Source of the DNA: Craspedostauros australis | Lineage: Eukaryota | Direction: 5' to 3' | NCBI GenBank assembly: GCA_030167865.1 | Contig: JALAGF010004118.1 | Location: forward strand, 62,001-106,049 | Length of the DNA: 44,049 bases | Shown here: positions 2 to 31,697 of the stretch, piece by piece | How positions within the stretch are numbered: the stretch's first letter is position 1 | Layout: each line of letters starts with the position of its first letter | The notes under the pieces: model-generated | Database searches by the model: none | What the model was told of the DNA's origin: nothing | Seen by the model: only the letters and a program-made list of their open reading frames with translations | Translations under genes and position numbers: made by a program

Positions 2-847
2 AAACAGAACGACGGCAAAGACGAAGAGGTCAGCAACGAGCAGAAGTTCATCAACGCCGTCTTCCTCGCCGCCAGCTTCGGCTACGCCATCTTCACCATC
101 CTCAACATCGACGACGGCATGACGCGCGGTTGGTCCGCCAGCGAGATCGCCATGCGCATTCCGCTCGACAACTGGGGCAACTACGAGTCCTGCCTGGCCA
201 ATCAGCCCATCTCGACGAAGACCCTCATCAACGTCATCATCTACCTCCTCGGCGACTGGCTCAGCCAAACCGCGTTCGCCGGCAACAACCTCCTCAACTT
301 CGATCTCTCGCGCACGCTGCGCAACGGCTTCATCGGCCTCTGCTTCGGCCCCCTCGTGCACGAGTACTACCAATTCAGCGACGCCATACTACCGCCCGAA
401 GACGGCCTCGTCACGCGCCTGCAAAAGATCCTCATGGACCAAACGCTATACCTCACGGTCAAGTGCAGCATGTACATCAGCGCGGTGGGACTCCTGTCCG
501 GCGACGACCTGCCCACCGTCAAGAAGAACGTGCAGGACAAGATCGGCGGCATCGTCATCACGGCCTGGAAGTTCTGGCCCCTCGTGCATTGCATAACGTA
601 CGGCCTCGTGCCGGCGCGTCATCGGATCCTATGGGTCAATTCGGTGGATTTGGTGTGGAACGCTATCTTGGCATCGAAGACGCAAGGCGAAGAGAATGAG
701 GATGGTGGCGACAAGATCATCACGGCGCAAGACGAGACGAACATCGCCGTCCATATGGAGGATGCGACCGATGCCACCATTTCCATCATCGACCTGCAGC
801 AGGATCCCGCGTTGCTTGGTCGCAATGCCACGGCCGTCGCCGTCTGA
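2..847 (+). CDS. Mpv17/PMP22 family membrane protein (5'-partial)
   Basis: The frame is open from base 2, so the gene begins before the window and the ORF-track M at 119 is internal. Family motifs: P..TK, LGDWLSQ, 'FDLSRTLRNGFIGLCFGPLVHEYY', 'KILMDQT', 'AWKFWPLVHCITYGLVPARHRILWVNSVDLVWNAILA'. Strong C-ending codon bias. Confidence 0.9.
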   Translation, partial: KQNDGKDEEVSNEQKFINAVFLAASFGYAIFTILNIDDGMTRGWSASEIAMRIPLDNWGNYESCLANQPISTKTLINVIIYLLGDWLSQTAFAGNNLLNFDLSRTLRNGFIGLCFGPLVHEYYQFSDAILPPEDGLVTRLQKILMDQTLYLTVKCSMYISAVGLLSGDDLPTVKKNVQDKIGGIVITAWKFWPLVHCITYGLVPARHRILWVNSVDLVWNAILASKTQGEENEDGGDKIITAQDETNIAVHMEDATDATISIIDLQQDPALLGRNATAVAV

Positions 848-1114: not shown

Positions 1115-2419
1115 TCAACTCCGCGACACTCCCCACGGTCGGGAATGCAATGGCCGTTGCACGACGGGCTGCTGCTGCGTCTCTTCGTCTTCAAATGCGT
1201 AACTCCACGTCTGACACCACTTCTGCATCTGCGGCACGGTGACTTCCATGCCTTGATCGCCCAGAGCCTCCCGGAACCACTGCGTCATCTGGCGCAGCTG
1301 ATTGCAAGGAATCCCCAACGACGCGATGCGTTCAAAGTAGGTCTCGTAGGACCCGCCGTGCACGGCCTGCCCCGCGACGATCATGGCCACCAAACTGAGG
1401 CGATGCGCCGTGCGCGGCACGCAGAAGGGAAGCGACGGCACGCCGCTGCTGCGCAACGTCTCGACGGAGCAGGCGCGGTCGAGGTAGATCATGGCCAGCA
1501 CGGTCTGGATGCCGTCCTGCTCAATGTCCAGCGCCTTGGCGATGTGGCGCAGGTAGGGCAGCATCTCGGGTCCCCATCGAGCGACGCCGCGGCGGATCGT
1601 TTTGCGTTTGCGGGGGGCCTTGGCGTGGAAGAGGGTGAGCTCGGTTTCTGGTTGGGATTCGCCGCGTGAGATCGGGGCGTGCCATTGTCGCGATGGATGG
1701 ACGTTGACGGGGTGGCTGCCGCCGCGCTGTTGCAGGTAGGTTGGTGTTGCTTTTGGAGGTGGTGGTGGGACTCCTGTTGGTGATGACGATGTTGTTGATG
1801 ATGTTGTTGACATCGTTGTTGATGACGTGCTCCTGCTTCCGTATTGACGCAAGCTCTGCATTGAGCTGTGTGGTGACGATGCTGATGAGGGAGGGGCGGA
1901 GATGCCATGCAGTAACCTCCTGTTCCACTCGCTCGTGAGACGCAAGGCCAGCGAGATCTGCTCCAGCGAGACCTTGGGCGGCTTGACGAAGTGCCGATCC
2001 TGCGTTGACTGTGTTAACTGCGCTGGCGGCGGAGGTGGTGGTGGGGGAGTCTGAACGGAGGCGGCGTGATGACTCTGCGGCTGCACTAGCTGTCGTTGCG
2101 GGTGCTGCTCCTGTTGTTGGTACTGTTGCTGTTGCTGTTGCTGTGGGTGATAATGATGCTGGGCATGCTGTTGTTGATGCTGATGCTGTTGATCCATCCC
2201 CTGACCATCAATGATGGCATTCGCTCCCATGTTCATGCTGCTCATGCTGGTGCCCATGTTGACATCCATGCCATCGTGCATGCTGCCCCCACGCATGAGC
2301 AGCAGCTGTGCAGGATTCCTCGACAGTTCCCATGATCTCGTGACCTGGCTGCCGGACACCATTCTCGTTGAGTGAGACACAACGAGAATGGCGGAGAGAA
2401 TCTTGACGAATGAAATCAT
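1115..2419 (-). CDS. Cyclin-like protein (PHO80/cyclin P/U-type box) with N-terminal signal peptide and Q/P/S/T-rich linker
   Basis: 434-aa ORF. The C-terminal 'TVLAMIYLDRAC...PRTAHRLSLVAMIVA' matches the PHO80-like cyclin pattern (al.YldR...nvHRL...A). The N-terminus MISFVKILSAILVVSHS is hydrophobic and signal-like. Confidence 0.7.
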   Translation of the reverse strand: MISFVKILSAILVVSHSTRMVSGSQVTRSWELSRNPAQLLLMRGGSMHDGMDVNMGTSMSSMNMGANAIIDGQGMDQQHQHQQQHAQHHYHPQQQQQQQYQQQEQHPQRQLVQPQSHHAASVQTPPPPPPPPAQLTQSTQDRHFVKPPKVSLEQISLALRLTSEWNRRLLHGISAPPSSASSPHSSMQSLRQYGSRSTSSTTMSTTSSTTSSSPTGVPPPPPKATPTYLQQRGGSHPVNVHPSRQWHAPISRGESQPETELTLFHAKAPRKRKTIRRGVARWGPEMLPYLRHIAKALDIEQDGIQTVLAMIYLDRACSVETLRSSGVPSLPFCVPRTAHRLSLVAMIVAGQAVHGGSYETYFERIASLGIPCNQLRQMTQWFREALGDQGMEVTVPQMQKWCQTWSYAFEDEETQQQPVVQRPLHSRPWGVSRS

Positions 2420-2489: not shown

Positions 2490-2514
2490 AGAGAGAGAGA
2501 GAGAGAGAGAGAGA
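2490..2514. repeat. (GA)n microsatellite in the 5' region of the cyclin-like gene
   Basis: An uninterrupted run of ~12 GA units. Shorter GA/CT runs occur near 5973, 30640, 33563 and 38586. Confidence 0.9.
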
Positions 2515-3218: not shown

Positions 3219-4844
3219 ATGTTGCGCGTCGCATCACCGCTTGGTGGCCGATCAGCGCATCGCATCCGACGATCCGCATTGGCAGCTCTTGCCGATCGCA
3301 CTGGAATCAGCACCGACGATCGCGGCTCAAGCAATGCCACAGATGAATGGACCACCGCACGACGGCAGTTCGTGTCGGTCCACAATCACGCGCACGTGCA
3401 AAAGCAGAAGCGTTTATACAGAAATGTGGTGCTGCACAACGCCATCCCAATCCACGAACACATCGTTCACAGCAGCATGCAGAGGCGGCACATGTCGTCG
3501 TGGTTGCCGGAAGCCTTCCAACAGATCTCCATCTGGGGTGGTACGGGACATCTTCTCAAGGCCATTCACATGGACGGCACCGTGCCCTACTGGGCGTGCT
3601 TCGCGCTCATCAACGCGGGACTGCGCACGGCCCTGCTCCCTCTCGTCGTCTACAGCGCCCGCACATCGGCGCGTTTTGCCAAGGTCTCACCCGAGATACA
3701 GTTCATCATCACGCTGTTTCAGAACGATCTTAAGAAACTCAGGGAGCAGAAGAAGAGCCTTCTGGAACAGCGCTTCCTCTTCACGCAGAACTTGGAAACC
3801 ATCCGCAGCATCTACAAGCTGCACAAGATCAACCCCCTCACGGTCTTCCTCAGCCCGCTGCTGCAAATTCCATTCTTCTACTACGTCGCCGTCGATCTGC
3901 GCAAGATCGTCAACGGCGCCGATCCGGCCTTGGCTCAGGCACTGACGGAATCCTCCTTCTGGTGGTTGACCGACCTCACCGACCCCGACCCATGGTACGG
4001 TCTGCCCATGGCGGCAGGCGCCATGCTCTACTTCAACGTCGAAGTCGCGCTGGGCCGCCGCAGCCTCAGCGGACCCGCGGCTTCCAAATCCGACTTCGCC
4101 GGCCTCCTCAAGGACGCCTTCCAAACGCTGGCCGTCTTCATGCCATGCTTCGCGTCGCAATCGCCGGCCGGATTGCAGATCTACCTGCTGTCCAGCTTCA
4201 CCTTCACGCTGTTTCAGAGCGCGGCATTGCGCACCGACGCTCTGCGCGAGAGGATCGGTCTGCCGGCCATGGGGACGCCACCCGAGGAACCCAAGTACGC
4301 CAAGCAGTTCATGGAGTTCAAAAAGATGGAACAGAAAGCGCGCGAAATCCGCGGCGACGGGCCCGTGTTGGGCAAGGGTATTTTGGCGCATGGCTTCGAG
4401 ACGTCGTTTCCAGGCAGCAATCGGCCCAGTACCATTCAAGGTAGCGACGAGTCCGTGTTGAAAATGTTGCGCGAAGCGGAGGCAGAGCAGAAGGCTGAGG
4501 ATGCACCCACGATGCAAGTGGCACCCAAGACTATGTTGGGTGGCGGGCCATTCATTCATGGCATCTCGGCGCCGCCCGATCAAATCGATGAGCAGGTGGC
4601 GGCGGCGTTTGCCGAGAAGGATAATGAAGAAGCTATGGTACCATCGACTGCAACAACGACGACGGCTGCGACGACGACTACGAATTACATGGATCAGCCA
4701 ACCGAAGATGAGATGGAGGCTGCCAACAAGGGCATTCGCATGGCACCGGTTGAGGTGGACGCTATTACACCCACCAACGCCACGAAGAAATCCATCAACG
4801 TCAAGAAATTCAGATCCAAACGAGGTGGGAAGCGGAGGAGATAA
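3219..4844 (+). CDS. OXA1: Mitochondrial inner-membrane insertase, Oxa1/YidC family (541 aa)
   Basis: The first in-frame ATG is at 3219 (the ORF track starts at a TTG). It opens an R/S/A-rich mitochondrial-type presequence, MLRVASPLGGRSAHRIRRS. Motifs: 'PYWACFALINAGLRTALLPL', 'PLLQIPFF', 'WLTDLTDPDPWYGLP', 'PAGLQIY'. The long C-tail ends in a basic stretch, which favours Oxa1 over Cox18. Confidence 0.88.
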   Translation: MLRVASPLGGRSAHRIRRSALAALADRTGISTDDRGSSNATDEWTTARRQFVSVHNHAHVQKQKRLYRNVVLHNAIPIHEHIVHSSMQRRHMSSWLPEAFQQISIWGGTGHLLKAIHMDGTVPYWACFALINAGLRTALLPLVVYSARTSARFAKVSPEIQFIITLFQNDLKKLREQKKSLLEQRFLFTQNLETIRSIYKLHKINPLTVFLSPLLQIPFFYYVAVDLRKIVNGADPALAQALTESSFWWLTDLTDPDPWYGLPMAAGAMLYFNVEVALGRRSLSGPAASKSDFAGLLKDAFQTLAVFMPCFASQSPAGLQIYLLSSFTFTLFQSAALRTDALRERIGLPAMGTPPEEPKYAKQFMEFKKMEQKAREIRGDGPVLGKGILAHGFETSFPGSNRPSTIQGSDESVLKMLREAEAEQKAEDAPTMQVAPKTMLGGGPFIHGISAPPDQIDEQVAAAFAEKDNEEAMVPSTATTTTAATTTTNYMDQPTEDEMEAANKGIRMAPVEVDAITPTNATKKSINVKKFRSKRGGKRRR

Positions 4845-4884: not shown

Positions 4885-5861
4885 CTAGAACTCGTCGCTG
4901 CCCGCCAAATGCTCCGTATCCTGGACCTTCTTGATGAATTCGCTCTTCTCAAGGCATCCCTTGCATTCCACGCCTCTCTCGCTGAGGATCTGTCTCAACT
5001 GCTTGACCCGCAGCTTGCTGAGGTCCTTCTTTTCCAACTTTTCGGTCTTGATGGGGAACTTGACGGTGCAGATTTCCGGGTTGCTCTTGGTGATGCGCTT
5101 GCAGACCTTGAGCGACGACATGCCCAGCGAGAATGGCTGCGCGACATCGCGCTTGATGGGGTCGATGTAGTAGCAGATCTTCTTCTCGCGGGCGCTGAGG
5201 GTCTTGCCCTCGTTGGCACAGTACTTGCCGATGGCGGACTCGATCTCTGGCTTTTTGCGGGAGGCGTCCTTCGTCATCGTGGCGCGGACGTCGTCCATGA
5301 CCTTCACACAGACTGTTGTGCAGTATAATATAATATTCATTGCAGTAGTATTGCAGTATCATAGCAGTATTATTGCAGTAGTATTGCACCATTTTTGTTG
5401 TCATTGTCAACGTTGTCCATTGTATTGTCGATGGGATAAATGAAGAAGACATGCCAATAGAATTGAGATTGTGAGAACACGCGATGGTCGCGGTTAGAAA
5501 ACTAGAGACTGCAAGTACGATGGAATGCCTTTGCGTGAATCTACCACGCTCGTTGCTTCATCCTAGCATTGCACATCCGCTGCGGTATGGCCGCCGACTG
5601 TCATCTGCCACAGATCTATCCAATGCAAACACATCCAATGCAGTGCAGTTCTGTGCAGTCCACTCTGGCTCTGTACTCGCAGTCTTTGGGTCATTGCCTC
5701 CATGGTAACAGCCGCATGTCCTGCATTGGTGCAGCACATCCAAGCGAAGCCAAGAAACAAACCACGGACGTCGCCCGCACACACACACCTTCACATTCTT
5801 CGGCTGCCAATGCGACGGTGGCATAGGCCAAAAGGGCGGCAAACACGGTGATGAACTTCAT
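4885..5861 (-). CDS. MANF: MANF/ARMET-family ER protein, 2 exons (5861-5789, 5312-4885; 166 aa)
   Basis: Exon 1 encodes signal peptide MKFITVFAALLAYATVALA-AEECE. The GT..AG intron 5788-5313 joins it to give EECEVCVK (MANF CEVC). Eight Cys in MANF spacing, the SAP-like 'DLSKLRVKQLRQILSERGVECKGCLEKSEFI' with CKGC, and C-terminal SDEF (ER-retention-like). Confidence 0.93.
5313..5788 (-). other. Spliceosomal intron of MANF (476 nt, phase 1)
   Basis: GT donor at 5788 and CAG acceptor ending at 5313. Splicing restores the CEVC motif in frame. Confidence 0.9.
5339..5388. repeat. 12-bp degenerate minisatellite (ATTGCAGTAGT-like) x~4 inside the MANF intron
   Basis: attgcagtagt attgcagtatc atagcagtatt attgcagtagt attgcac. 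Confidence 0.75.
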
Positions 5862-6673
5862 TTTTCGTTGGAATTAGAGGGTGGTGTTGGATGGATGGGT
5901 CGATGTTGTTGTGGCTACTCTCCACTGATGTTGCTGATGGTCTTTCTTGGTGAGGTGGAGATGGTCATGGAAGAGAGAGAGAGAGACGTTGCGCCGCTTC
6001 GTTGGGCTTGTGGTTCTCAACGGCAAAAAGACTGCACAGCTCAAAATTGGTTTTCGGCCACCTCCGCCGCAATCGAACGCAAAACAACGACTGAATCGTT
6101 GTGTGTTGCGTAGATTGCCACGTGGAGGCTCGTGATATCTATGTGGTGGGACTGAAAAAGAACAATGGATCACGAGTCCAACAGAAGCAAAAAGAGGATG
6201 AACGATGATCTGCAGAGATGTGGTGGGATCCAAAAGAAGCAACCACGAGGCGCCAGCATGGGTGCCCATCACAGCTGCGTGTGGCTCGTATCCCACAACG
6301 AACTTGCCATTCATTCACCTCCATTCCACAATTCCGCAGCTGTTGTTCTGTTCCCACAACGCTGTCAGCACCAGTGTCTCAACCACTACCAGCACATTCG
6401 CACAATACGCTCGTGCAATACCAACCACATTGCCAGGACCATCAATCGATCGACCGATCTCCACGTGTCCATCGTCGCCACCATCTTGGTGCACTCTTGT
6501 GTGAGGCAACCCCCATCGCGCAAGGGAAAGCTTGGAAAGACAGCTGGATCCTCTGCAGAGAACAACTCGGTTTCTGCCTCCAAACCCGTTCACCCAAGCA
6601 GCATTCAACCAGAGTGAATCCGGAGGAACAGACACTCGGCACACGCTTGCTCCACAGATCATATTCGTCGACC

Positions 6674-9600
6674 ATGATGCGGCAAGGATCGCTTCACCGA
6701 GGCACTCGCCGAGGTCTGAGTTCGATGTTGAAGCTCACGCTGATAGCGTCGGTTCTCTTATCATCTCTCCTCTCTTCAACGACCACCAGCACAAGCAGTG
6801 GCACTAGCACCGCCATGGGCATACCATGCTTAGCATCAGCCTTCAAGCCAATGTTGCAACCAAGGATACCGCTCACCAAATTTCCAACTTTGCTGGTGCG
6901 AGGTGGCGATGCCGGCAGCACGGCCAACGAAAAGGACCTGCCCACGTCCACTCACGATGACGATGAAGACAAGGGCAACAGCGAACGTAATGGCGATGAG
7001 GAACGCAACGATGTTGGCGTTGACAAGGACGACGGCGACGATGACGGCCTTGATGGCACCAAGAACGCCAGCGAAGAGGACGACAAGAAGAAGCATTCCA
7101 GCGTCGAAGACTACGTGGCCGCCATGAAAGCCAAAGACGAGCAACAGCAACATCATCAACAGGATGATGATGCATCTCATTCCGAGTCTCAAACTCAGCA
7201 ATCGTCAAACAAGGATGATACCGAGCCCACCCACGATTCGAATGGAGGCGATCGCAACGATTCATCAGCGCCGCAGTCACATGCAGACTCGGAGCCATCG
7301 AGCAGCGACAGCAAAAAGAGCAGTGACGTGGCGGATGATGCCTCCGTCGGCGTCAAGTCGCACAAGAAGTCAAATGCAGTCGGCGACGCGGACGGCGACA
7401 GCGACGACGATGATGACGAGGATCCGGATGACAGCGACCTGTCATCAGACTTCAGCGAAGAGTGGGAAGATCTCGACGATCTTGCCCCACATCATCGCGC
7501 ATCACAGCAGTCTCGCAGTGATCAGCAGGATCTTCCAGATGACAGCTACATCATCGAACCGGAGGTGCAGCTTGAAGTCGAACTGTTGCAGAGCACCATT
7601 CCCGCTGCTGGCACTAGCAATGCGGTCAACGAAGATGCCGGCACTCGCAGCAGCGAAACGCACGACAACAAACACAGCGATGCGTACGGCAACGACGCGG
7701 ATGATGATGGCGACGAGACTGTTGCCGCCTCATCCTCATCCAAGCCCTCCAGAGCTGCCAGATCGGGTGGCGTCGGGATTCGTCTCGGGCGAGGCCGGCG
7801 GAACAGTCGTCAACGTGGCAAGAACTCAGAACGCAAGCGCCGTTCGCAGGAAGCTGTTGCGGATGACGACGATGTCAAACTGATCGAGGCCTGGATGCCC
7901 CACCTGTACTTTCCACCACGCGACAGCACCCTGTCCTACCTCGCAGACAATGGACGCATGATCGATGCCGCCTCCAAGTCACGACTGGACAGACGAACAT
8001 TGTACGGCAGCTTGCTCATGGAATGGGGATGCTCCCCGCAATCCTCGCGCAGGTCGGGTGGAGCGCGCAAGTTCTTTCCGCACAAGACGACGCAGGAACT
8101 GCAGGCGGCACTTGCCGTCGCGACGCAGCCGCACTGGCGCAAAGCTACACCGCGCACCAACGGTATCATGATGTACACTGAGCTTGACAACAAGGACAAG
8201 AACAAGCCCATGACATTGAGCATGCAGGAAACTGTGGCCATGTCTTTGGTAAGTTATGCACGAGTGATGCCGGAATCGTAACCGCGAAAGCACCTATCGT
8301 ACAGATGGAACATAATGCTCTCGTTCGATGCCAACTAACACTATTCCGCTTGTCGTTTCATTTCAATTCATGCCTTTTGTTGGTGAATGGTTCTTCTGCC
8401 GATGTCGCATTTGGCGCTTACACGATTGATCACGCACATGCGCATTCCAAACAAACCTGCACAGGCACACTCAATGGGCTGCGGCATGCTCATCCTGGAT
8501 GATCAAGTGCTGAACAAAGTGCGGCAGAAGATGGTCGAAGCAGGCGTGAGCGACGGCAAGTTGAAACCTGCTTCACTGTTGAAAACTCTGCTCAACGCAG
8601 CAAAGGCAGGCAAGGTTGCGCAACCACCGACGGCACGAGCCACTGCCTCCATCTCATCGTGCATGCGGCACGACATGTCGTGTGGTCTGGACGATCAATA
8701 CGACGAACGGGCCATCGTCAGTATGGAGGCCATGGTGGAATGGGAGGCTGCAGAAACGAAAGAAGATACGAAGGCCAACGCATCCGAGGACAACGCATCT
8801 TTGCCACTCCCGCTGGTGATCTTCATCCGCACGTCGTCATCTGGCTCCTTGCTCAAGAGCAAGACCGCCATGGAACTTCTCATCCACGAGTGCACAGCCG
8901 ACGACAGTATCCATCTCGTCACGCTCGGCAAGGGCATCGACGAGTGGACCGATTCATTGCCACAGAATCGGAACAGCCACAGTGAGGTGGGGCAAGGACA
9001 GGATATGAGCGGTTCCTTGGGCCAGACGCCTTTCGACAACGTGGGAGGTTCCAACGGCAACAAACAAGGACAGTTTGGCTTCACTTCCCAACACAACAAC
9101 GCGTCAGGACAGAACGATCCACCTGGTTCACGCCGGTTCAACATTTTCCTGTCCCGCACAACCGACGCCAACGGTCATCTTGGAATCTTTGGTGCAATCG
9201 CGCCGCCTCAGGTCGGCAACCTGTTCCCCCACATGATGGCCATGCAGACGCGCGAAAAGCTGGAGCGACAGCACATTGAGAATTCGCCAGCCAAGGAAGA
9301 GCTGGAACGGTGGCAGAGGATGATGGAGCAGCAGCAGGAGGGGAACGATCACATAGACCCCACCCAAATGTCCTCCGTCCGCTTCTTCAACGCTAGCCTG
9401 TCCATCGGGTACCAAGACCAAAACGAAGACGAAGGCAGCCGCAACTCGCGCAGTGAGCAGTACGATGAGCAGCACGATGATCAAGATCAGACCGGCTTCC
9501 AACCGTGGGCGCATCCGCCACCGCATATCGTGGAGAAGGCATTGCAGCACTCGATGTCATGGATATTGGACGATCTATCGCAAATTGGCAAGGACGAGCG

Positions 9601-12062
9601 CGACGAGAGATCGGAGCAGCCTCCAAACGTCGTTTCACCCAAAGATCTGTCTCCCGATTTCCACACGGCGTTTGCGCAGGTGTTGCGAACCGAGAATCTC
9701 CGTCGTGGCATCGCCGAGAATTTGTCGCGTGCCGCACCAGCACTCTCTGATCCCAAATGCCATGGCATCATGCTCAGCATCTTCGTTCCGCCGCAGGGCA
9801 CCGGACAAAGAGGAAGGATGCCCACGGCACCGGGCCAAGGCAACAACAACGGCAACGCGCCGAACAACTCCAACATGAACGGTTGGTTCAACGAAGTGTT
9901 GCAAAGCCAGGACAAGGAGCGCAGGGATGCAGTCGCCGACTCCGATGACGGCAGCGACGAGGAAGAGTCGGCCAAGGACCGGCAAAAGCGAGTGAGAACC
10001 ATGGCAGCGGCTGCGGCTGTGATGGCGGCCAACCAGGCCCAGACGAACGACGCCCGTGATCGGGCCAAGTCATCTGAAAACAAAGCCGAGCGCAACCTCG
10101 CCAAGCTGGAATCCATCTGCCGTCCGATCGATATTGACGTCCCCACAGACCCTGTGCGTGCCAAGTCATGGGAGGCGTGGATCAACCGAGAGCGTGGGTC
10201 CATCGTGTTCCGCATGAATCGGCGGGCGCTCAGCGAAGAATTGATCCAGCATATGCTGGCCTTGGAACTGCACACGGGTACGCGGGGCGCGGGTTCTGCA
10301 TTGCGCCAAATGCTCAGCGTCCGCGATTTGGAGTCGGACATGGACAGAATCGTCCGATGTGCCGTGGAGCTGGAGGCATCCAAGGGTTTGAGGAAGCACG
10401 AAATGCCAAACACCGCCCACGAGAATGACCTGAAGCTCCAGATCGACGAGTCATTGATTCAATTGAATCTCAATGTTGACGATGACGAATGCGGACCTGA
10501 TGGTACTCAAGGAGGTACTTCTGACAACAGTGACGGAGCCACAGAAGCCGCGTCAACATCAAGCACGGGAACAGATACATCCGAACAACGCGATGACGAC
10601 AAGCAAGATGCCAAGTCGGGGCCATCGAATTGGCAATACCTCCACCCATCCAGTTTGGAGTCCGCGCTGACGATGGTTTGCCAGATCAGTCCCTCTCCAG
10701 CAGGAGGTCTGTCGCTTTCCGGTTCCATTGCCGGGGCTCACCGCAGCCGAGACGAAATCTCGAACCTGGCGCAGGACAAGCACGAGCGCGCCTTGGTTTC
10801 GCAAGTTGTCTCGCCGCAGGACATTGGCGTCACGTACGACATGATCGGTGGACTCTCGCAGGTGAAGGAGCTGTTGCGACAGAGCATCACGTACCCGCTC
10901 AAATTCCCGCATCTCTACAGCGAAGGTATTGCGCGAGAAGCAGTGAAAGGAGTCCTGTTGTTTGGGCCACCAGGTAAGTTGGTGCTGCTGCTATTGCTGC
11001 TGCTATATTTGTGTGGGCTTGCTCTGTTGTGCTCTACTCCCTTGACCACAACGTGCTGAGGGAACATGCCATAAAACTCGCGCTTACACTTGTTGAGAAT
11101 GACCTTGTGGATTTGCTGCCGACCCGATGCCATCCTGCTCGCGCGCTGCCTTGTTGTTGATGCACACGCACAAACGGATGCACATGTGGATACGAATGCT
11201 CGACCGCATTGCATCACGCCATGACCTTGTGTGCGCATCACATTGCGTCACGATAGGTACGGGTAAAACGATGCTCGCCAAGGCCGTCGCAACAGAGGGC
11301 GGCGCAAGCTTCTTGAGCGTCGATGCCTCCTCGGTGGAGAATAAGTGGCTCGGAGAGTCTGAGAAGAATGCCAAGGCCGTCTTCACCCTCGCACGGCGAT
11401 TGGCGCCATGCGTGATCTTTATCGACGAGGTGGATTCTCTGCTCTCCAGTCGAGAGGGCAGCTCCGATGATTCGGCGCACGGCACGTTGACAAGCGTGAA
11501 GACGACGATGATGAGCGAATGGGATGGACTGAACTCCGGCACCAACGGAAACGGCGAGGCTGGATCCGATCGCGTGGTTGTGATCGGATCGACCAACAGA
11601 CCATTTGATCTGGACGAAGCCGTGTTGAGACGATTCCCACGCAGAATCCTCGTGGATCTGCCAGACATGCAGAGCCGCAAGGAGATCCTGGAGGTGACGC
11701 TGGCGGAAAATCGTCTGGATCCTGCAGTGAACCTGACGGAGATCTCGGAACGCCTGGATGGCTACACAGGATCCGACATCAAGGAGGTGTGTCGAGAGGC
11801 GGTCGTGCAGATCAGCCACGAGCAGGCCAAGCTGCTGGATCAAGGATTTCTGGATGCGGAGGAAGATATCACGGAGGGTTCGCTGCAGCGACTACGACCT
11901 GTGACGACGGCAGACTTTGAGAGTGCGCTGACCAAGCTCAAGCGCAGCGTTTCGGAGAAGGGACGCGAGCTGGCGCGGGTGTGGGAATGGAACGACGAGT
12001 ACGGTGAGATCAAGAAAGAAAAGACGAACAAGATGCCCCATCTCATGAACATGTACCTGTAG
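6674..12062 (+). CDS. Large AAA+ ATPase of the Msp1/ATAD1/spastin clade (plant-type long form), 3 exons (6674-8248, 8465-10973, 11257-12062; ~1629 aa)
   Basis: The spliced Walker A reads GPPGTGKT. Also present: pore loop NKWLGE, Walker B IFIDEVD, 'MSEWDGL', 'TNRPFDLDEAVLRRFPRR' and C-terminal 'WNDEYGE'. The exon 1/2 junction gives 'QETVAMSLAHSMGCGMLILDD', resembling the degenerate first module of plant long AAA proteins. The start may instead be ATG 6677 or 6725. Confidence 0.88.
8249..8464 (+). other. Intron 1 of AAA ATPase (phase 0)
   Basis: GTAAGT donor at 8249 and ACAG acceptor ending at 8464. Both flanking ORFs share a frame. Confidence 0.8.
10974..11256 (+). other. Intron 2 of AAA ATPase (phase 1, interrupts Walker A)
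   Basis: GTAAGT donor at 10974 and TAG acceptor ending at 11256. Splicing rebuilds GPPG-TGKT. Confidence 0.93.
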
Positions 12063-23601: not shown

Positions 23602-26109
23602 ATGGAGGGACTTTTCGAATCCATCACAGAATCAACTACCTGCTTTGCATCGCACGTATCGGTGGACGTCCGATCTGCCGTCGCCTGCTTTCAGCCTTCG
23701 AACGTGCTGACGGACGTGTGGATGATGTCGATGATGTCGATGGCGGTCGGCCTCTGGTTCGTCTTGCTCATGCTTCAAACCAACGCTCTTTTGGCATGGA
23801 CCGGATCAGCCAAACCTGTGGATACGAGCACGGCCGCATCGAGCGATGATTGCGTTCGGGACGACTACGCTCGTTTCGATAATCGCCTGAGCCAGGAGCA
23901 TATCTCACCGACGAGGACACCATCTGAAAGCACAAGCTCCTCGGAATCATCATCAATCACGAATGAACCTCAGTCTGCCCAGAGGCCTTCACTGCTCGAG
24001 AGCCTCAGTAGAGGCAGCATACGACTCTCCAGAGATGGAAGCAACGTGATTCGATCGGCGAACAAAGAAACAGACAGCTTCTACATCAATAATCTGAAGG
24101 GCAATGAAAACGTCGACAGCTCCGTCAATCATTTCAGCGGCACGTCCGGTTTCTGGGATGACTTGGTGCCCGGCCTCCTGGCACAAGATATGGCCAGGTT
24201 GCACGAATCCTTCTCCGGCGTCCTGAATGACAATTATGATTCCGATAACAAAGACGATCCGCCCGACATCGACGCCGATACCTCCGACGCCATCCATTTG
24301 CACCGACCCACAGCAACTCATTTCTGCTTCCTCATTCACGGCCATCGCGGCGTCGCACGGGATCTATGGTACATGGAGATGGCCATGCGCAAATTCGCCT
24401 CCATCCAACGAGATCAGCAAGAGCAGGCGCGCAAAAAGCGGTATGATGCTATGAAGCAGGCGGGGATGAATGCAACCAACGAAAGCCTGGACGATTGCCC
24501 GCTGCATGACATGATTGTGTATTCCACCGTCTGCAATGAGGGCAAGACAACGGACGGCATTGAGAATGGAGGCGAGCGCTTGGTGCGGGAGATCAACGAG
24601 GTCATCCTCAAGAAGATGCGAGAACGGCATCCTACAAAGGTGGACGGCAGCAGTTGCGCAGTTGCAGATTTGCATGATGTCACCATCTCCATCGTCGGCA
24701 ATTCCCTGGGAGGCCTGTACGCACGGTACTCCATTGCCACATTCACGCAACGATATTGCGAACAGCCTGCTTCGGATGAGACAGTGTTGCGCATGAAGGG
24801 CACGGACCTGCGCATCCACCTCAACATATTCTGCACGACAGCGACGCCCCACTTGGGCGTGTCGCGCCATACGTTCTTGCCGATTCCAAGATCCGCTGAG
24901 ATCGGCGTGGCGCATGCGATGGGCGAGACGGGACGCGATATCTTCCGTCTCAATACCCTCCTGCGGTCGATGTGCACCAGCTCTGCGTACCTGGACACTC
25001 TGGGCAGCTTTCGCAAGAGGACCGCCTATGCCAATGCCTACGGGACCGATTTTCCCGTTCCCACATCCACGGCGGCATTCCTGTCGGGGCAATCGAACTA
25101 CCCGCATTACTTCGTGGATGCCGCAGAGAAACAAGAAGCCCAGAGCAAGGATTCAGCCAGCGAGTACATCATTGCCACTTTGGAAACACCAAGGCAGTTC
25201 AAGACATCATCGCCATCGTTGTCTACTCGGAGCTCAAGCTCGCGCTTTCGATCGAACTCGGATCACAGCAGCAGCAGTAGGAGCAGCGCACTACAACCAC
25301 ATCAAAACGATGATGACGATGATCAGGACACTGCGCAAAGCTCGGATGAATCCGATGAATTGCGGCAAATGTCCGAGTGTTTGGATCAGCTCGGTTGGAA
25401 GAAGGTCTTCCTGGACATGAGGAGGGAGCTGCCGTCGATGGAGATCCCCAAGTCTGTTGCTCGCGTCATCCTGACGGGCAAGAAGCAGCTGCATCAACTG
25501 CAGCAGCAACAACAATCTCGACGAGCCAGCAGTTATGCGAGGGCCGGTTCTGGACGCGGCCTCCTATCCCTGTTGCAACAGGACCAACAGCAGCAAGAAG
25601 ATGCAAGCACGTCAAATCGCGAAGACGAGGAAACGAAACAGAAATCAAACGACCCCGTTGCCGATGATGACATCGTGGACAGCGATGAGAAGAGCAACCG
25701 CCGTTTGGATGCGCTGAGACACACAGGGATCGCGCAGTCGAAGGACCTGGCCAACGTCGTCTCGTACCAAAGCGACAACCGGCTCTACGTTCCCGTCGGA
25801 CACAACATGATGGTTGCATTCTCACGATCGCGACTGAGCTCATTCCTCCACATGGGCGGCAGACCCGTGGTCGATTCCTTGGCCCGGGATGTGATCAGAG
25901 ATATATTCCTGTGGTCTTCCGCTGCCAGCGACAGTCAGATACCTTCCGCGCACCACAGCCAAATGTTTCCAGAATCTGCAACCGCCAAAGGCGATCGTGA
26001 AAGTGACGCGAGAACCGACGGCCCCATCTCCTCCCCAAAGAGCCAAAGGCCATCCCCGCCATCCAAAGAAACGTCAGGCTGCGAACATGACGGAGTTGTT
26101 GCCGACTGA
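23602..26109 (+). CDS. DUF676 (ROG1/FAM135-like) alpha/beta-hydrolase, putative lipase, with N-terminal hydrophobic anchor (835 aa)
   Basis: 'FLIHGHRG', 'KTTDGIENGGERL', nucleophile elbow 'SIVGNSLGGLYARY' (GxSxG at 24697-24711), 'TATPHLG', 'ETGRDIF', 'YANAYGTDFPV' (Asp) and 'VGHNMMV' (His). The TM-like segment 'MSMAVGLWFVLLML' lies near the N-terminus. Confidence 0.87.
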   Translation: MEGLFESITESTTCFASHVSVDVRSAVACFQPSNVLTDVWMMSMMSMAVGLWFVLLMLQTNALLAWTGSAKPVDTSTAASSDDCVRDDYARFDNRLSQEHISPTRTPSESTSSSESSSITNEPQSAQRPSLLESLSRGSIRLSRDGSNVIRSANKETDSFYINNLKGNENVDSSVNHFSGTSGFWDDLVPGLLAQDMARLHESFSGVLNDNYDSDNKDDPPDIDADTSDAIHLHRPTATHFCFLIHGHRGVARDLWYMEMAMRKFASIQRDQQEQARKKRYDAMKQAGMNATNESLDDCPLHDMIVYSTVCNEGKTTDGIENGGERLVREINEVILKKMRERHPTKVDGSSCAVADLHDVTISIVGNSLGGLYARYSIATFTQRYCEQPASDETVLRMKGTDLRIHLNIFCTTATPHLGVSRHTFLPIPRSAEIGVAHAMGETGRDIFRLNTLLRSMCTSSAYLDTLGSFRKRTAYANAYGTDFPVPTSTAAFLSGQSNYPHYFVDAAEKQEAQSKDSASEYIIATLETPRQFKTSSPSLSTRSSSSRFRSNSDHSSSSRSSALQPHQNDDDDDQDTAQSSDESDELRQMSECLDQLGWKKVFLDMRRELPSMEIPKSVARVILTGKKQLHQLQQQQQSRRASSYARAGSGRGLLSLLQQDQQQQEDASTSNREDEETKQKSNDPVADDDIVDSDEKSNRRLDALRHTGIAQSKDLANVVSYQSDNRLYVPVGHNMMVAFSRSRLSSFLHMGGRPVVDSLARDVIRDIFLWSSAASDSQIPSAHHSQMFPESATAKGDRESDARTDGPISSPKSQRPSPPSKETSGCEHDGVVAD

Positions 26110-30671: not shown

Positions 30672-31697
30672 CTATCCCATGATGGTGTCTGTCTTGACTG
30701 CCACAACATCCTTGATTCCATTCATGGCTTCCTCCGTCACTGAGTCCAACTCCTTGCCCACTGCAAAAGCATCATCCTTGGAGATACCTGGTAGCTTGCC
30801 ATCCTTGCCTTTCTTGATGACATCCATGACCTTGTGCCGTACTCGACGGATGCGTTGCTTGCATCCTTCCGCACGCTTCTGAACCTGCTTGACTGTTTCC
30901 TGCCTCGATTCCAACGAAGGGCGTGGGATGGGGATGCGCACCAATCCACCCTCCTCCAGCTGCGGGTTGAGGCCCATGGCGAGCTGAATCGATTTCTGCA
31001 CCTCCTTTGCAACAGAAGGGTCGAAGCACGTGATTTGCACCAGTGTTGGCGACGCGATGACGACTTGGCCCACTGCCTGCAACGGCGTCATCGAACCGTA
31101 CGCATTGACCATGATGCTGTCGAACAGTTCCGGCGTCGGCTCTCCGCCTCGAATGCCCTTCAAGGACTCCTCGAATTTATCCACCAGCTTCATCATCTTG
31201 TCCTTGATGAGGTCCGTGTCTGGCAGCATGACTTCTGCCTCTTCATCATCGGCGCCGTCGTTGCCCATCATCATGCCGTCATCGGCGTTTTCAATCTCAT
31301 CATACAGGGCATCCTCATCGACCTCGTCGTCGGCACCGGAACTTCCAAAATCCATCGGCGAGGCCGCAGCAGCATCTTCATCCTCAACGGCAGCGCCCAT
31401 CTGCTTCTTGTTCTTCTTGCCGCCCGATTTCTTGTTGGCCTTGCGATCTTTCTTCTTTTGCCGACGTTCAGCAGCAGCCTCGCGTGATGGTGCGTGCGCC
31501 AATTCTTCCAATACCTCGCGATGGTGCCCCATTCTGCTGGCATGCTTCCATCGCACGAGCATGCCGTCGTTAGTTGTGGCAGGCAATCGCACGGTCGAAA
31601 GTCCAGCGATGTGGCGAGTTGGAGCGCGGCACAGAGCGGAAGTTGGCTGCCGCAACAAGCGCTGCGATGCTTGTTGAATCAATCGGCGGCTGAACAT
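30672..31697 (-). CDS. MRRF: Ribosome recycling factor, probably mitochondrial (341 aa)
   Basis: RRF motifs: 'LKGIRGGEPTPELFDSIMVNAYGSMTPLQAVGQV', 'FDPSVAKEVQKSI...GLNP', 'IPIPRPSLESRQ', 'KQRIRRVRHK', 'ISKDD'. R-rich presequence MFSRRLIQQASQRLLR from ATG 31697. Confidence 0.92.
   Translation of the reverse strand: MFSRRLIQQASQRLLRQPTSALCRAPTRHIAGLSTVRLPATTNDGMLVRWKHASRMGHHREVLEELAHAPSREAAAERRQKKKDRKANKKSGGKKNKKQMGAAVEDEDAAAASPMDFGSSGADDEVDEDALYDEIENADDGMMMGNDGADDEEAEVMLPDTDLIKDKMMKLVDKFEESLKGIRGGEPTPELFDSIMVNAYGSMTPLQAVGQVVIASPTLVQITCFDPSVAKEVQKSIQLAMGLNPQLEEGGLVRIPIPRPSLESRQETVKQVQKRAEGCKQRIRRVRHKVMDVIKKGKDGKLPGISKDDAFAVGKELDSVTEEAMNGIKDVVAVKTDTIMG

Follow-up and report, generated by a model that had tools for sequence, protein, structure and literature searches.

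Introduction

Cyclins are normally cytosolic and nuclear proteins, and the lysine of the A-x-K signature in their central helix contacts the cyclin-dependent kinase (CDK). Those of the Pho80 type, which have Pho85 and CDKs as partners, are likewise cytosolic or nuclear, and the PHO80-like group (PF08613) also takes in plant P/U-type cyclins and the diatom CYCP genes. Cyclin Y (CCNY), the partner of CDK16, binds 14-3-3 proteins and is anchored by N-myristoylation, facing the cytosol. In diatoms, the outermost membrane around the plastid is part of the same membrane system as the endoplasmic reticulum (ER), being continuous with it, and we know of no nucleomorph in these organisms, nor of any cyclin in their periplastidial compartment (PPC). 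A precedent for a cyclin inside the PPC is offered by the cryptophytes, whose nucleomorphs encode cyclin B and CDC2, as stated in the excerpted text of PMC5443833. Regarding the targeting signals, an aromatic residue at +1 within an ASAFAP-like motif would lead to the stroma and not to the PPC, according to the rule as excerpted from PMC4329603, and, according to ASAFind 2.0, a net positive charge is required for import into the stroma, while acidic residues are tolerated in PPC presequences.

Here we describe a protein (P0001) encoded in a stretch of 44,049 nucleotides from Craspedostauros australis (contig JALAGF010004118.1, positions 62,001 to 106,049 of the forward strand), hereafter the window. 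Its sequence suggests a PHO80-like cyclin with a putative route into the ER, a combination that would be new.

Results

The protein is encoded by an uninterrupted open reading frame of 434 codons plus stop (Table 1), and the ATG at 2419 is the first in-frame one after a TAG located 10 codons upstream. It starts with MISFVKILSAILVVSHSTRMVSGSQ and continues to LLLMRGGS, in which the RGG corresponds to residues 43-45, followed by Q/H-rich and P-rich low-complexity stretches and by a C-terminal domain with the sequence IVAGQAV. The layout given in a preliminary description of this DNA (a hydrophobic start, LLLMRGG, poly-Q/P linkers and VAGQA) can thus be read entirely in the protein. Imperfect tandem repeats of 6 and 18 nt occur at 2095-2191, in the part coding for the linker, and the dinucleotide repeat upstream of the ATG is probably a 5′ UTR or promoter element. 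Neighbouring genes encode Mpv17/PMP22, Oxa1/Alb3-like, ARMET, AAA ATPase, giant NB-ARC-TPR, DUF676 and RRF proteins; no functional link of P0001 to them was found, as expected at a eukaryotic nuclear locus, and Pfam detected no kinase domain among the 16 larger ORFs of the window.

Table 1. Features of the P0001 gene and its product, with positions in the window
Feature	Residues	Positions	Strand	Basis or remark
Complete ORF, divergent cyclin-box protein with N-terminal presequence		1115..2419	minus	ORF reading, relatives
Signal-peptide-like segment	1-23	2351..2419	minus	heuristics, conservation in relatives
Transit-peptide-like stretch SQVTRSWELSRNPAQLLLM	24-42	2294..2350	minus	2 R, 1 E, 4 S/T, no K
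First RGGS (LLLM-RGG-S, then MHDGMD)	43-46	2282..2293	minus	proposed presequence/mature boundary or processing site
Low-complexity M/N/G, Q/H, poly-P linker	47-140	2000..2281	minus	predicted disordered
Conserved block F-x-PPK-x-L-x-x-[IM]S-x-ALR-x-T-x-E-x-NRRL	141-175	1895..1999	minus	long helix 152-174
Second RGG (232-234) and PVNVHPSR-x-W-x-PI motif	229-250	1670..1735	minus	inside flexible linker
ELTLFHAK / RWGP lead-in and single cyclin box	258-415	1175..1648	minus	AF2, Foldseek
LPFC, within insertion between cyclin-box helices 2 and 3	330-333	1421..1432	minus	alignment
Codon of Q351, A-x-K lysine position of canonical cyclins, central helix	351	1367..1369	minus	alignment
(CT)12.5 dinucleotide repeat		2490..2514	minus	71-95 nt upstream of ATG

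The C-terminal domain is modelled by AF2 with a pLDDT mostly above 90 and with cyclin-box helices at residues 286-296, 304-317, 338-354, 358-364, 372-385 and 395-409 (the separate domain model has a mean pLDDT of 80.1, with 164 of 295 residues at 90 or more). In Foldseek searches with the domain model, the first 15 PDB matches were all cyclins, led by Pho80 (2pmi/2pk9; E 0.029-0.055, probability 1.00; over both models, E 0.03-0.06 and TM on target 0.42-0.45) and cyclin Y (9r2n_D/9r2i_D), with Pcl10 (4krd) and cyclins C, K, D1 and T among the further matches, and the full-length model agreed in its cyclin matches. The similarity is modest, since the top matches have E values of 0.03-0.1 and TM on target of 0.42-0.48, and none reaches 0.001. 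Among the neighbours in a language-model atlas, 21 of 30 share the PF08613/PF00134 set, with scores of 0.91-0.92. On these models, the domain has the five-helix cyclin-box fold, nearest to the PHO80 / Pcl / cyclin-Y branch.

Direct sequence comparisons gave no such result for P0001 itself: no Pfam cyclin model matched the whole protein at E<=1 or its isolated C-terminal 177 amino acids at E<=10, and searches of PDB sequences (phmmer and two profile searches) returned low-complexity or chance matches only, with no cyclin among them. The relatives of the protein provide a transitive link. Among the 78 members of alignment A1, five match PF00134 and four match PF08613, whereas a Pfam scan of 66 more distant members of alignment A3 found 14 that match a Pfam cyclin model at E<=0.01, four of them (P0175, P0176, P0193 and P0201) above the curated cut-off. 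Two marginal non-cyclin matches were the sole others in that scan. P0175 matches PF08613 at 4.7e-08 and the window domain at 2.2e-20, and P0114 matches PF00134 with 28.8 bits (cut-off 23), PF08613 with 22.4 bits (cut-off 21) and the window domain at 5.3e-20. Through these intermediates, P0001 is linked by homology to Pfam-matching cyclins. The PHO80-like cyclin box proposed earlier therefore stands on the predicted fold, the language-model neighbours and the homologues, and not on the Pfam and PDB sequence searches with P0001.

Searches with P0001 retrieved 115 relatives at E<=0.01 (best E 1.8e-80), and 153 representatives of clusters at 50% identity match the window domain at E<=1e-3. P0001 thereby belongs to a family that is spread across the diatoms and made up of highly divergent proteins with one cyclin box each. 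The named relatives belong to Cylindrotheca, Pseudo-nitzschia, Nitzschia, Amphora, Cyclophora and Chaetoceros, as well as to Kryptoperidinium, a diatom-bearing dinoflagellate. Upstream of the cyclin box, the full-length model has a pLDDT below 50 across most of residues 19-119, followed by the conserved block of residues 141-175, where N166 is invariant and L159, T162, E164, R167 and L169 are at least 90% conserved, and whose helix has a pLDDT of about 92-96. P242 is also at least 90% conserved, and distant members present the second RGG at the equivalent place (DPLRGG, DHLRGGGG); at least two RGG upstream of the cyclin-box core occur in 37 of 212 members.

Two features of the cyclin box set this family apart. 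The column of Q351, which we take to be that of the CDK-contacting lysine of cyclin A, contains Q in 71, E in 27, R in 23, K in 22, H in 11 and other residues in 23 of the 177 members that could be aligned by the pattern used (35 further members could not), while P0114 keeps ASK and is matched by Pfam Cyclin_N over the central helix. The replacement of the A-x-K lysine pointed out earlier was thus borne out, and, as this position is a glutamine here and variable in the family as a whole, the partner of P0001 is probably bound otherwise than in the classical cyclin-CDK manner. The second feature is a family-specific insertion (RACSVETxRSxGxPxCPFCxPRT), in which CPFC, a CxxC pair, is found in 97 members and LPFC in nine; P0001 is without the first cysteine of the pair, and C317 and C330 are at least 90% conserved in alignment A1.

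The first 23 residues of P0001 resemble a signal peptide, with the n-region MISFVK, a hydrophobic core (ILSAILVV) and two sites that follow the (-3,-1) rule, after residues 17 (SHS/T) and 23 (VSG/S). A hydrophobic segment, defined as a 10-mer with a Kyte-Doolittle value of at least 1.8 within the first 70 residues, was found in 134 of 166 N-complete relatives (those starting with Met in which 150 residues or more precede the core motif of the cyclin box), which argues against a chance hydrophobic stretch. Its core has a median length of 13 residues (range 10-25), as in signal peptides, and P0005 shows a parallel site (LSIA/SQ). The sequences point to an N-terminal signal peptide as a conserved trait of the family. 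The signal of P0001 is weaker than the family norm, with a core of eight residues, one lysine ahead and arginines soon after.

The possibility that translation starts downstream, at Met20, Met42 or Met47, so that the hydrophobic start would not be made and P0001 would be an ordinary cyclin of the cytosol or nucleus, either P-type or diatom-specific, is improbable to us. It finds some backing in this weak signal, in the Kozak-like context of Met20, which equals that of Met1 (A at -3, G at +4) and whose use would delete the signal segment, and in the database models of several relatives that begin past the signal peptide, such as Phatr2a_31968, classed as 'SignalP negative'. However, the position of the hydrophobic segment is kept across the relatives, the nearest ones included, the upstream stop leaves Met1 as the first in-frame start, and in the longer version of this Phaeodactylum protein (P0104), MALGNRSFLWLFSLLLSFPHTLA is present, followed by SYD. 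Besides, some of the 32 relatives without the segment (e.g. P0042 and P0055) begin just past the position of the signal peptide, suggesting models that are truncated at the N-terminus.

The topology bears on another explanation, namely that the segment is an uncleaved membrane anchor with a cytosol-facing cyclin domain, doing what myristoylation does for cyclin Y, with the R-x-x-S motifs (RGGS) as kinase and 14-3-3 sites. The charge of the N-flank exceeds that of the C-flank in 117 of the 134 relatives, predicting a lumenal C-terminus, and the cores are short and followed by small-x-small cleavage motifs, so that an anchor of this kind seems very improbable. In its favour, the best structural matches include cyclin Y, also in its 14-3-3 complexes, the sequence RGGSHP (232-237) fits R-x-x-S-x-P, presumably the relevant consensus, and the flanks of P0001 itself, with its arginines soon after the core and one lysine before, are not clearly positive-inside.

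Residue +1 of P0001 would be T18 or S24, with no F, W, Y or L at either plausible site, and its nearest relatives have S at +1 (ASA/SY, SIA/SQ, FIA/SR). An A-[TVMS]-[F/Y/W]-x-P motif, similar to ASAFAP, is located right behind the core in 43 of the 107 relatives with an N-terminal hydrophobic segment, and many pennate orthologues carry S-T-A-T-[F/Y/W]-x-P; an SRNP element common to P0001 and P0002 (ASRNP) aligns with [FYW]-N-P of other orthologues. The non-aromatic +1 residue taken in the preliminary description as a sign of periplastidial targeting is therefore present in P0001 and its closest relatives and does not hold for the family. A scan with the published ASAFind 1 matrix, an approximation run without SignalP that favours any phenylalanine, found no ASAFAP-like site in P0001, the best one (2.51) having V at +1 and lying inside the hydrophobic core; since such a scan jumps to nearby Phe residues, its family-wide +1 counts are unreliable, and the motif count and the alignments were used instead. 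PEXEL/RxLR-like, kexin-like and KDEL-type signals were also considered and dropped, as the sequences do not fit them.

The aromatic motifs of the orthologues would suit a stromal cyclin-like protein, with full import into the plastid and the RGG as the cleavage site of the transit peptide. Distant members (P0103, P0148, P0163, P0201 and P0233) have A/F sites scoring 6.6-7.1 followed by short basic stretches, and the diatom cleavage motif excerpted from PMC3774753, with Leu at -2, a charged or small residue at -1 and then an acidic N-terminus, resembles L-P-L-R/GG. Yet a stromal destination is very unlikely: P0001 has no F, W, Y or L at a plausible +1, its best matrix score is low and belongs to a site inside the core, the aromatic pennate orthologues are acidic downstream while proven transit peptides are nearly all net positive and almost free of D/E in the same excerpt, and the stromal reference proteins seldom contain RGG, with 17 occurrences at any position in 166 proteins.

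The RGG triplet was found within 130 amino acids after the hydrophobic core in 107 of the 134 relatives, as compared with 3.2% of shuffled segments. The family thus conserves an RGG-[S/A] motif 20-65 residues past the signal peptide, with an acidic or polar stretch behind it, the P. tricornutum member being without RGG. Counting by eye over the whole PPC table of ASAFind 2.0 (Appendix S3), a criterion that is unpublished, RGG was observed at the junction of presequence and mature protein (residues 39-91) in 12 of 40 signal-peptide-bearing rows, five of 23 from T. pseudonana (sCdc48, sCdc48-2, Der1-1, sSec14 and TrxH) and seven of 17 from G. theta. The P. tricornutum proteins 48879 and 19162, both labelled BLS (blob-like structure), and 50978 also have it. 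What had been a passing remark on LLLMRGG hence turned into a motif kept in most relatives and recurrent in PPC proteins of Thalassiosira, Phaeodactylum and Guillardia that are curated or were localised by experiment. In the PPC presequences of Guillardia the motif is LRLRGG, the tail of ubiquitin. On a speculative and unlikely reading, a PPC deubiquitinase of the ERAD-derived import machinery could therefore cut at the motif, in P0001 too, and this would define the mature N-terminus. The stretch between signal peptide and RGG has no lysine in P0001, and several PPC presequences in the same table are likewise without it. The word 'cyclin' does not occur in the ASAFind 2.0 supplementary files searched, and the open-access literature, to which the search was confined, gave no paper on a PPC cyclin or on an RGG presequence ending.

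The same region can be read as that of an ER-lumenal, endomembrane or secreted cyclin-fold protein, whose RGG would serve for propeptide processing or partner binding, which we see as a serious though rather unlikely alternative. The signal peptide conserved in the family speaks for it, and a signal peptide without F, W, Y or L at +1 is classed as 'not plastid, SignalP positive', hence as a candidate for the ER or secretory pathway, by the ASAFind rule as excerpted from PMC4329603. In most pennate orthologues, the stretch behind the signal has a net charge of -1 to -7, few S/T and no K, unlike a transit peptide; the second, internal RGG cannot be the end of a presequence; and an oxidising lumen would be a fitting place for the CxxC and the other cysteines that the family conserves. 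On the other hand, no KDEL/HDEL-type ending was seen among the C-termini inspected, P0001 has no N-glycosylation sequon, the RGG boundary motif is common to PPC residents, and the stretches of distant members are positively charged, rich in S/T and end in LPLRGG.

Discussion

The reading we tentatively prefer, giving it somewhat less than an even chance, is that of a diatom-wide cyclin-box family with a bipartite-looking presequence that leads to the ER and then to the PPC and ends with the RGG. The protein would be inserted co-translationally into the ER, and the stretch from the signal-peptide cleavage site to the RGG would act as a transit-peptide-like signal across the second membrane into the PPC. 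The presequence would end, and may be cut, at or near the RGG, as in the PPC residents that share this motif. Finally, the mature protein, composed of a disordered Q/P-rich linker, the conserved helix and the cyclin box, would act in the PPC as a binding or regulatory subunit. Several points speak against this route to the PPC, namely the weaker signal of P0001, the context of Met20, the orthologues with an aromatic +1 and the lysine-free stretch of residues 24-42. Of the periplastidial or ER location first proposed, then, the ER part is backed by the conserved signal, and the periplastidial destination is plausible from the RGG in the sequence, without the +1 argument.

The conservation of a signal-bearing family suggests that diatoms, which are among the major primary producers of the sea, use a cyclin fold inside a lumen or a compartment that derives from the endosymbiont. 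Were this compartment the PPC, P0001 would be a first candidate regulator for a poorly understood space, and it would offer a way to study how the host cell cycle is linked with the division of the plastid or with import. A bolder and unlikely extension is that a nucleus-encoded cyclin-like PPC regulator represents a functional remnant or replacement of the endosymbiont cell-cycle machinery, similar in this to the cyclin B/CDC2 of cryptophyte nucleomorphs, coupling plastid or PPC events to the host cycle, and that the RGG is a general, undescribed feature of PPC presequences. The RGG, a by-product of this analysis, may matter more than the cyclin, as it could improve the prediction of the PPC proteome and suggests a processing mechanism.

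With respect to the known systems, P0001 shares with Pho80 and Pcl10, its best structural matches, a single cyclin box that is flanked by additional helices on its N- and C-terminal sides and the IYLDR and HRL...A patterns, and some of its relatives exceed the PF08613 cut-off. Unlike them, P0001 has no PF08613 score, bears a putative ER signal peptide, a long presequence and a linker, and has Gln in place of the A-x-K lysine, and in its family helices 2 and 3 are separated by a cysteine-rich insertion (CSVETxRSxGxPxCPFC). As in cyclin Y, also a top structural match, the cyclin box would be tied to a membrane system by an N-terminal device, with short motifs in the flanking disordered regions, but P0001 starts with M-I-S-F and not with a Met-Gly myristoylation signal, and the hydrophobic segment of its family predicts translocation of the cyclin domain.

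Among diatom proteins, the diatom-specific cyclins (dsCYC), part of an expanded cyclin family in diatoms, are similarly diatom-restricted, fast-evolving and cyclin-like, and a signal peptide, unlike in the P0001 family, goes unmentioned in the excerpt of Huysman et al. 2010 (PMC2872877). The PPC residents sCdc48, sDer1-1, sSec14, PPC thioredoxin, ptDUP and sORF534 resemble P0001 in having a signal peptide, a short transit-peptide-like stretch, [hydrophobic/P]-RGG-[S/A] and an acidic mature start, as seen in the junctions CIPRGGSDYD (Phatr 48879), SILRGGSTAAAADDDED (Phatr 50978) and LFQIRGGSDAV (sSec14) when set against LLLMRGGSMHDGMD of P0001, whereas those residents are components of ERAD, the proteasome, chaperones and redox systems. 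Lastly, the cryptophyte nucleomorph cyclin B and CDC2, in the excerpt of PMC5443833, place a cyclin in the remnant of a red-algal endosymbiont, that is, in the PPC proposed here for P0001; that cyclin B is nucleomorph-encoded, canonical B-type and in no need of a presequence, in contrast to P0001, which is PHO80-like and encoded in the nucleus.

The gene and its family

The gene lies among ordinary eukaryotic nuclear genes (see the table), and the source of every named relative of its product is a diatom or a diatom-bearing dinoflagellate, which indicates that the locus is diatom nuclear DNA. The NB-ARC domain of the giant neighbouring product (residues 1926-2176, Pfam) is followed by many TPR repeats. 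An in-frame TAG stands ten codons 5′ of the ATG at 2419, and a perfect (CT)12.5 on the gene's strand, (AG)12.5 on the plus strand, is situated 71-95 nt 5′ of the start codon. The protein reads as the preliminary description had it, with an intact ORF: a hydrophobic N-terminus, MISFVKILSAILVVSHSTRMVSGSQ, is followed by LLLMRGGS, a long low-complexity part rich in M/N/G, Q/H and P, a conserved block, a linker rich in S/T/P, and finally a C-terminal domain with AMIYLDRAC and HRLSLVAMIVAGQAV.

Features of the locus and of the window protein (nucleotide positions in the window)
Feature	Position	Strand	Residues	Basis
Mpv17/PMP22 ORF	2-847	+		Pfam
Gene of the window protein, single uninterrupted ORF, 434 codons	1115-2419	-	1-434	
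Helix 152-174 and its block, conserved		-	about 141-175	
Segment with second RGG, disordered linker before cyclin box	1670-1735	-	229-250	
Helices of modelled C-terminal domain		-	286-296, 304-317, 338-354, 358-364, 372-385, 395-409	AlphaFold2
LPFC (CxxC position of the family)	1421-1432	-	330-333	
Perfect (CT)12.5	2490-2514	-		
60KD_IMP (Oxa1/Alb3) insertase ORF	3219-4844	+		Pfam
ARMET/MANF ORF	4885-5340	-		Pfam
Long ORF	6218-8281			no Pfam match
Long ORF	8387-11059			no Pfam match
AAA ATPase ORF with Vps4 C-terminal domain	11127-12062	+		Pfam
STAND/NLR-like giant, single ORF, 3198 codons	12931-22527	+		Pfam
DUF676 serine esterase ORF	23602-26109	+		Pfam
Ribosome recycling factor ORF	30672-31697	-		Pfam
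Long ORF	35539-37410			no Pfam match

The family is large: one search gave 115 proteins at E≤0.01, and a second gave 153 cluster representatives (50% identity) at E≤1e-3. The Cyclophora tenuis relative is titled 'Cyclin N-terminal domain-containing protein' in UniRef, so some members already carry a machine annotation as cyclins, and the new part of the family is its presequence. Full-text searches of the open-access literature found no report of a signal-peptide-bearing, periplastidial, plastid- or chloroplast-targeted, secreted or apicoplast cyclin.

A divergent cyclin box

The best reading of the window protein, based throughout on computational evidence, is that of a divergent PHO80/cyclin-Y-like cyclin-box protein that would enter the ER. 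Its predicted cyclin fold is supported by three independent lines, namely structure, language-model features and homologues, which sustain the PHO80-like cyclin box proposed earlier, whereas Pfam on the protein itself does not: neither the full sequence at E≤1 nor the isolated domain at E≤10 matched a cyclin. Searches of all PDB sequences with phmmer and two family profiles likewise gave only chance matches for the window protein.

An AlphaFold2 model from 78 relatives is confident at about residues 270-410 and in the helix 152-174, and a domain model of residues 140-434, built on 149 sequences, has a mean pLDDT of 80.1. In Foldseek comparisons with the PDB, the top matches of both models are Pho80 (2pmi, 2pk9) and cyclin Y (9r2n, 9r2i), followed by Pcl10 and cyclins C, K, D1 and T; the best 15 matches listed for the domain model are all cyclins. 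The likeness is modest (best E 0.029, none at E≤0.001, TM-scores of 0.42-0.48 on the target), and the modelled helices fit a single cyclin box flanked by an N-terminal and a C-terminal helix. The ESM Atlas neighbours of the protein are clusters with PF08613, the PF08613/PF00134 set being common to 21 of 30 matches (scores 0.91-0.92). Among the 78 aligned relatives, PF00134 is matched by five and PF08613 by four, and the relative P0114 exceeds the curated cut-offs of both; among 66 more distant members, 14 match a cyclin model at E≤0.01, four of them above cut-off, with P0175 reaching 4.7e-08. P0114 and P0175 match the domain of the window protein at 5.3e-20 and 2.2e-20, respectively, and no family other than cyclin recurs in the Pfam scans of the relatives.

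The family is set apart by loss of the A-x-K lysine and by an insertion, RACSVETxRSxGxPxCPFCxPRT, between cyclin-box helices 2 and 3. Its CxxC is nearly invariant (CPFC in 97 members), and the window protein, with LPFC, lacks the first cysteine. The A-x-K lysine of the central helix touches the kinase in canonical cyclins. Its replacement, suspected from the sequence, is confirmed as Q351 and extends to the family: the 177 alignable members have Q in 71, E in 27, R in 23, K in only 22 and H in 11 at this column. As this key lysine is not kept, the protein is probably no classical CDK activator.

The probable N-terminal signal

The predicted signal peptide of the window protein has counterparts in most relatives: a hydrophobic 10-mer is found within the first 70 residues in 134 of 166 members, these being Met-started and having at least 150 residues upstream of the cyclin-box core motif. 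Some of the other 32, P0042 and P0055 among them, start directly after the signal-peptide position, which suggests truncated gene models. The single Phaeodactylum member, Phatr2a_31968, is 'Not plastid, SignalP negative' in the ASAFind 2015 table because its gene model begins at an internal Met. In databases a longer version, P0104, starts MALGNRSFLWLFSLLLSFPHTLA|SYD, a clear signal peptide, so that published targeting tables may have missed the family for a trivial reason.

The hydrophobic cores of the 134 members are short (median 13 residues, range 10-25), and in 117 the N-terminal flank is more positive than the C-terminal one. Both properties are in keeping with a cleavable signal peptide, by which the C-terminal part would reach the lumen; a membrane anchor with a cytosolic cyclin domain does not fit them. 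The signal of the window protein is at the weak end, with an 8-residue core, one lysine ahead and arginines soon behind. After the core, sites 17|18 and 23|24 obey the (-3,-1) rule, the latter being the one proposed in the preliminary description and having a parallel in the close relative P0005 (LSIA|SQ). Translation may also start at Met20, whose context is as good as that of Met1, and the signal would then be removed.

The residue behind the predicted cleavage site

With translation from Met1 and a cleaved signal peptide, the non-aromatic +1 residue noted at first holds for the window protein and its nearest relatives, which have serine behind a small-x-small site (VSG|S, SIA|S, FIA|S, ASA|SY), but not family-wide. 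Many pennate orthologues carry, after the hydrophobic core, a strongly conserved S-T-A-T-[F/Y/W]-[N/S]-P-x-x-x-P, and among the 107 relatives whose N-terminus is hydrophobic, 43 have the aromatic form (Y 17, W 16, F 10). The S-T-A-T-[F/Y/W] motif resembles ASAFAP, known from stromal plastid proteins. The window protein lacks it and keeps just S-R-N-P-A.

In the pennate orthologues among relatives P0011-P0094, the conserved stretch behind the signal peptide spans 12 residues, S-T-A-T-[F/Y/W]-[N/S]-P-x-[Y/H/Q]-[H/N]-P-[Q/K], with a conservation far above that of a generic transit peptide.

The published matrix of ASAFind was scanned over the N-termini by itself. In this approximate scan, which favours any phenylalanine, no ASAFAP-like site was found in the window protein (best score 2.51, within the hydrophobic core); F-type orthologues scored 5.5-5.8 and some distant A|F members 6.6-7.1.

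An RGG motif at presequence ends

The LLLMRGG region is the most conserved element in the N-terminal half. An RGG lies at most 130 residues behind the hydrophobic core in 107 of the 134 members, compared with 3.2% of shuffled segments; as a rule S comes next, ahead of a polar or acidic stretch (DTPRGGSTM, LPLRGGY, KLPLRGGSMAM, IPRGGS). The Phaeodactylum member, with PFQGH at that place, is a misfit.

The motif also stands at the presequence ends of periplastidial compartment (PPC) proteins in the ASAFind tables: CIPRGGSDYD in Phatr 48879 (sORF534) and LSTRGGGAPGE in Phatr 19162 (sCdc48-2), both labelled BLS (blob-like structure), and SILRGGSTAAAADDDED in the AAA ATPase Phatr 50978. The table of curated PPC proteins in ASAFind 2.0 Appendix S3 was covered in all its 65 rows, 40 of which have a TargetP signal peptide by the table's tally. 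In a count by eye, RGG falls at residues 39-91, where the mature domain joins on, in 12 of these 40: 5 of 23 in T. pseudonana (sCdc48, sCdc48-2, Der1-1, sSec14, TrxH) and 7 of 17 in Guillardia theta (a glucan synthase, Ubc8, and Cdc48, EF-1 alpha, 14-3-3, RRM1 and cyclophilin). Most G. theta motifs read [L/M]-R-L-R-G-G, as in the tail with which ubiquitin ends (LRLRGG), the last five proteins being cited for this form. The T. pseudonana ptDUP model, where TargetP calls no signal peptide, has SIPRGGSDSDS immediately ahead of the catalytic domain. As a rough control, RGG was counted at any position in a table of 166 stromal reference proteins, with only 17 occurrences.

The ubiquitin-like ends suggest that a deubiquitinase-like protease in the PPC may process RGG-ending presequences, and the Toxoplasma PUBL paper terms an RGG ahead of a ubiquitin-like domain a potential deubiquitinase site. 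No description of RGG at PPC presequence ends was found in the open-access papers searched. With counts made by eye, the motif should be taken as a lead, short of an established rule. A second RGG of the window protein (residues 232-234, YLQQRGGSHPVNVHPSR), with counterparts at the same place in distant members (DPLRGG, DHLRGGGG), cannot be a presequence end and is another misfit.

Destination and comparison with known systems

The presequence runs from a signal peptide through a short transit-peptide-like stretch to RGG and an acidic start. This is the layout of PPC residents, which makes the PPC the most likely destination, although this localisation stands about level with all its rivals together. 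The main rival is that the protein stays on the ER/secretory route. The lack of lysine in the transit-peptide-like stretch is a misfit, one that several presequences of the PPC table share, and the aromatic residue behind S-T-A-T in many orthologues is another misfit to a PPC location. As a PPC resident, the protein would pass through the ERAD-derived translocon, be processed at RGG and act as a regulatory or binding subunit.

Proven diatom transit peptides are net positive except for two of 63, with almost no D/E (PMC3774753), whereas the stretch downstream of the motif in the aromatic orthologues has a net charge of -1 to -7 and contains no lysine. According to the description of ASAFind 2.0 (PMC12136025), a positive net charge is required for plastid import but not for PPC import, and acidic residues occur throughout PPC presequences. 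Pho80 has one cyclin box with an extra N- and C-terminal helix, a layout matched by the modelled helices of the window protein. Finally, a cyclin in the PPC would have a precedent in cryptophytes, whose nucleomorph is described as encoding cyclin B and CDC2 (PMC5443833).
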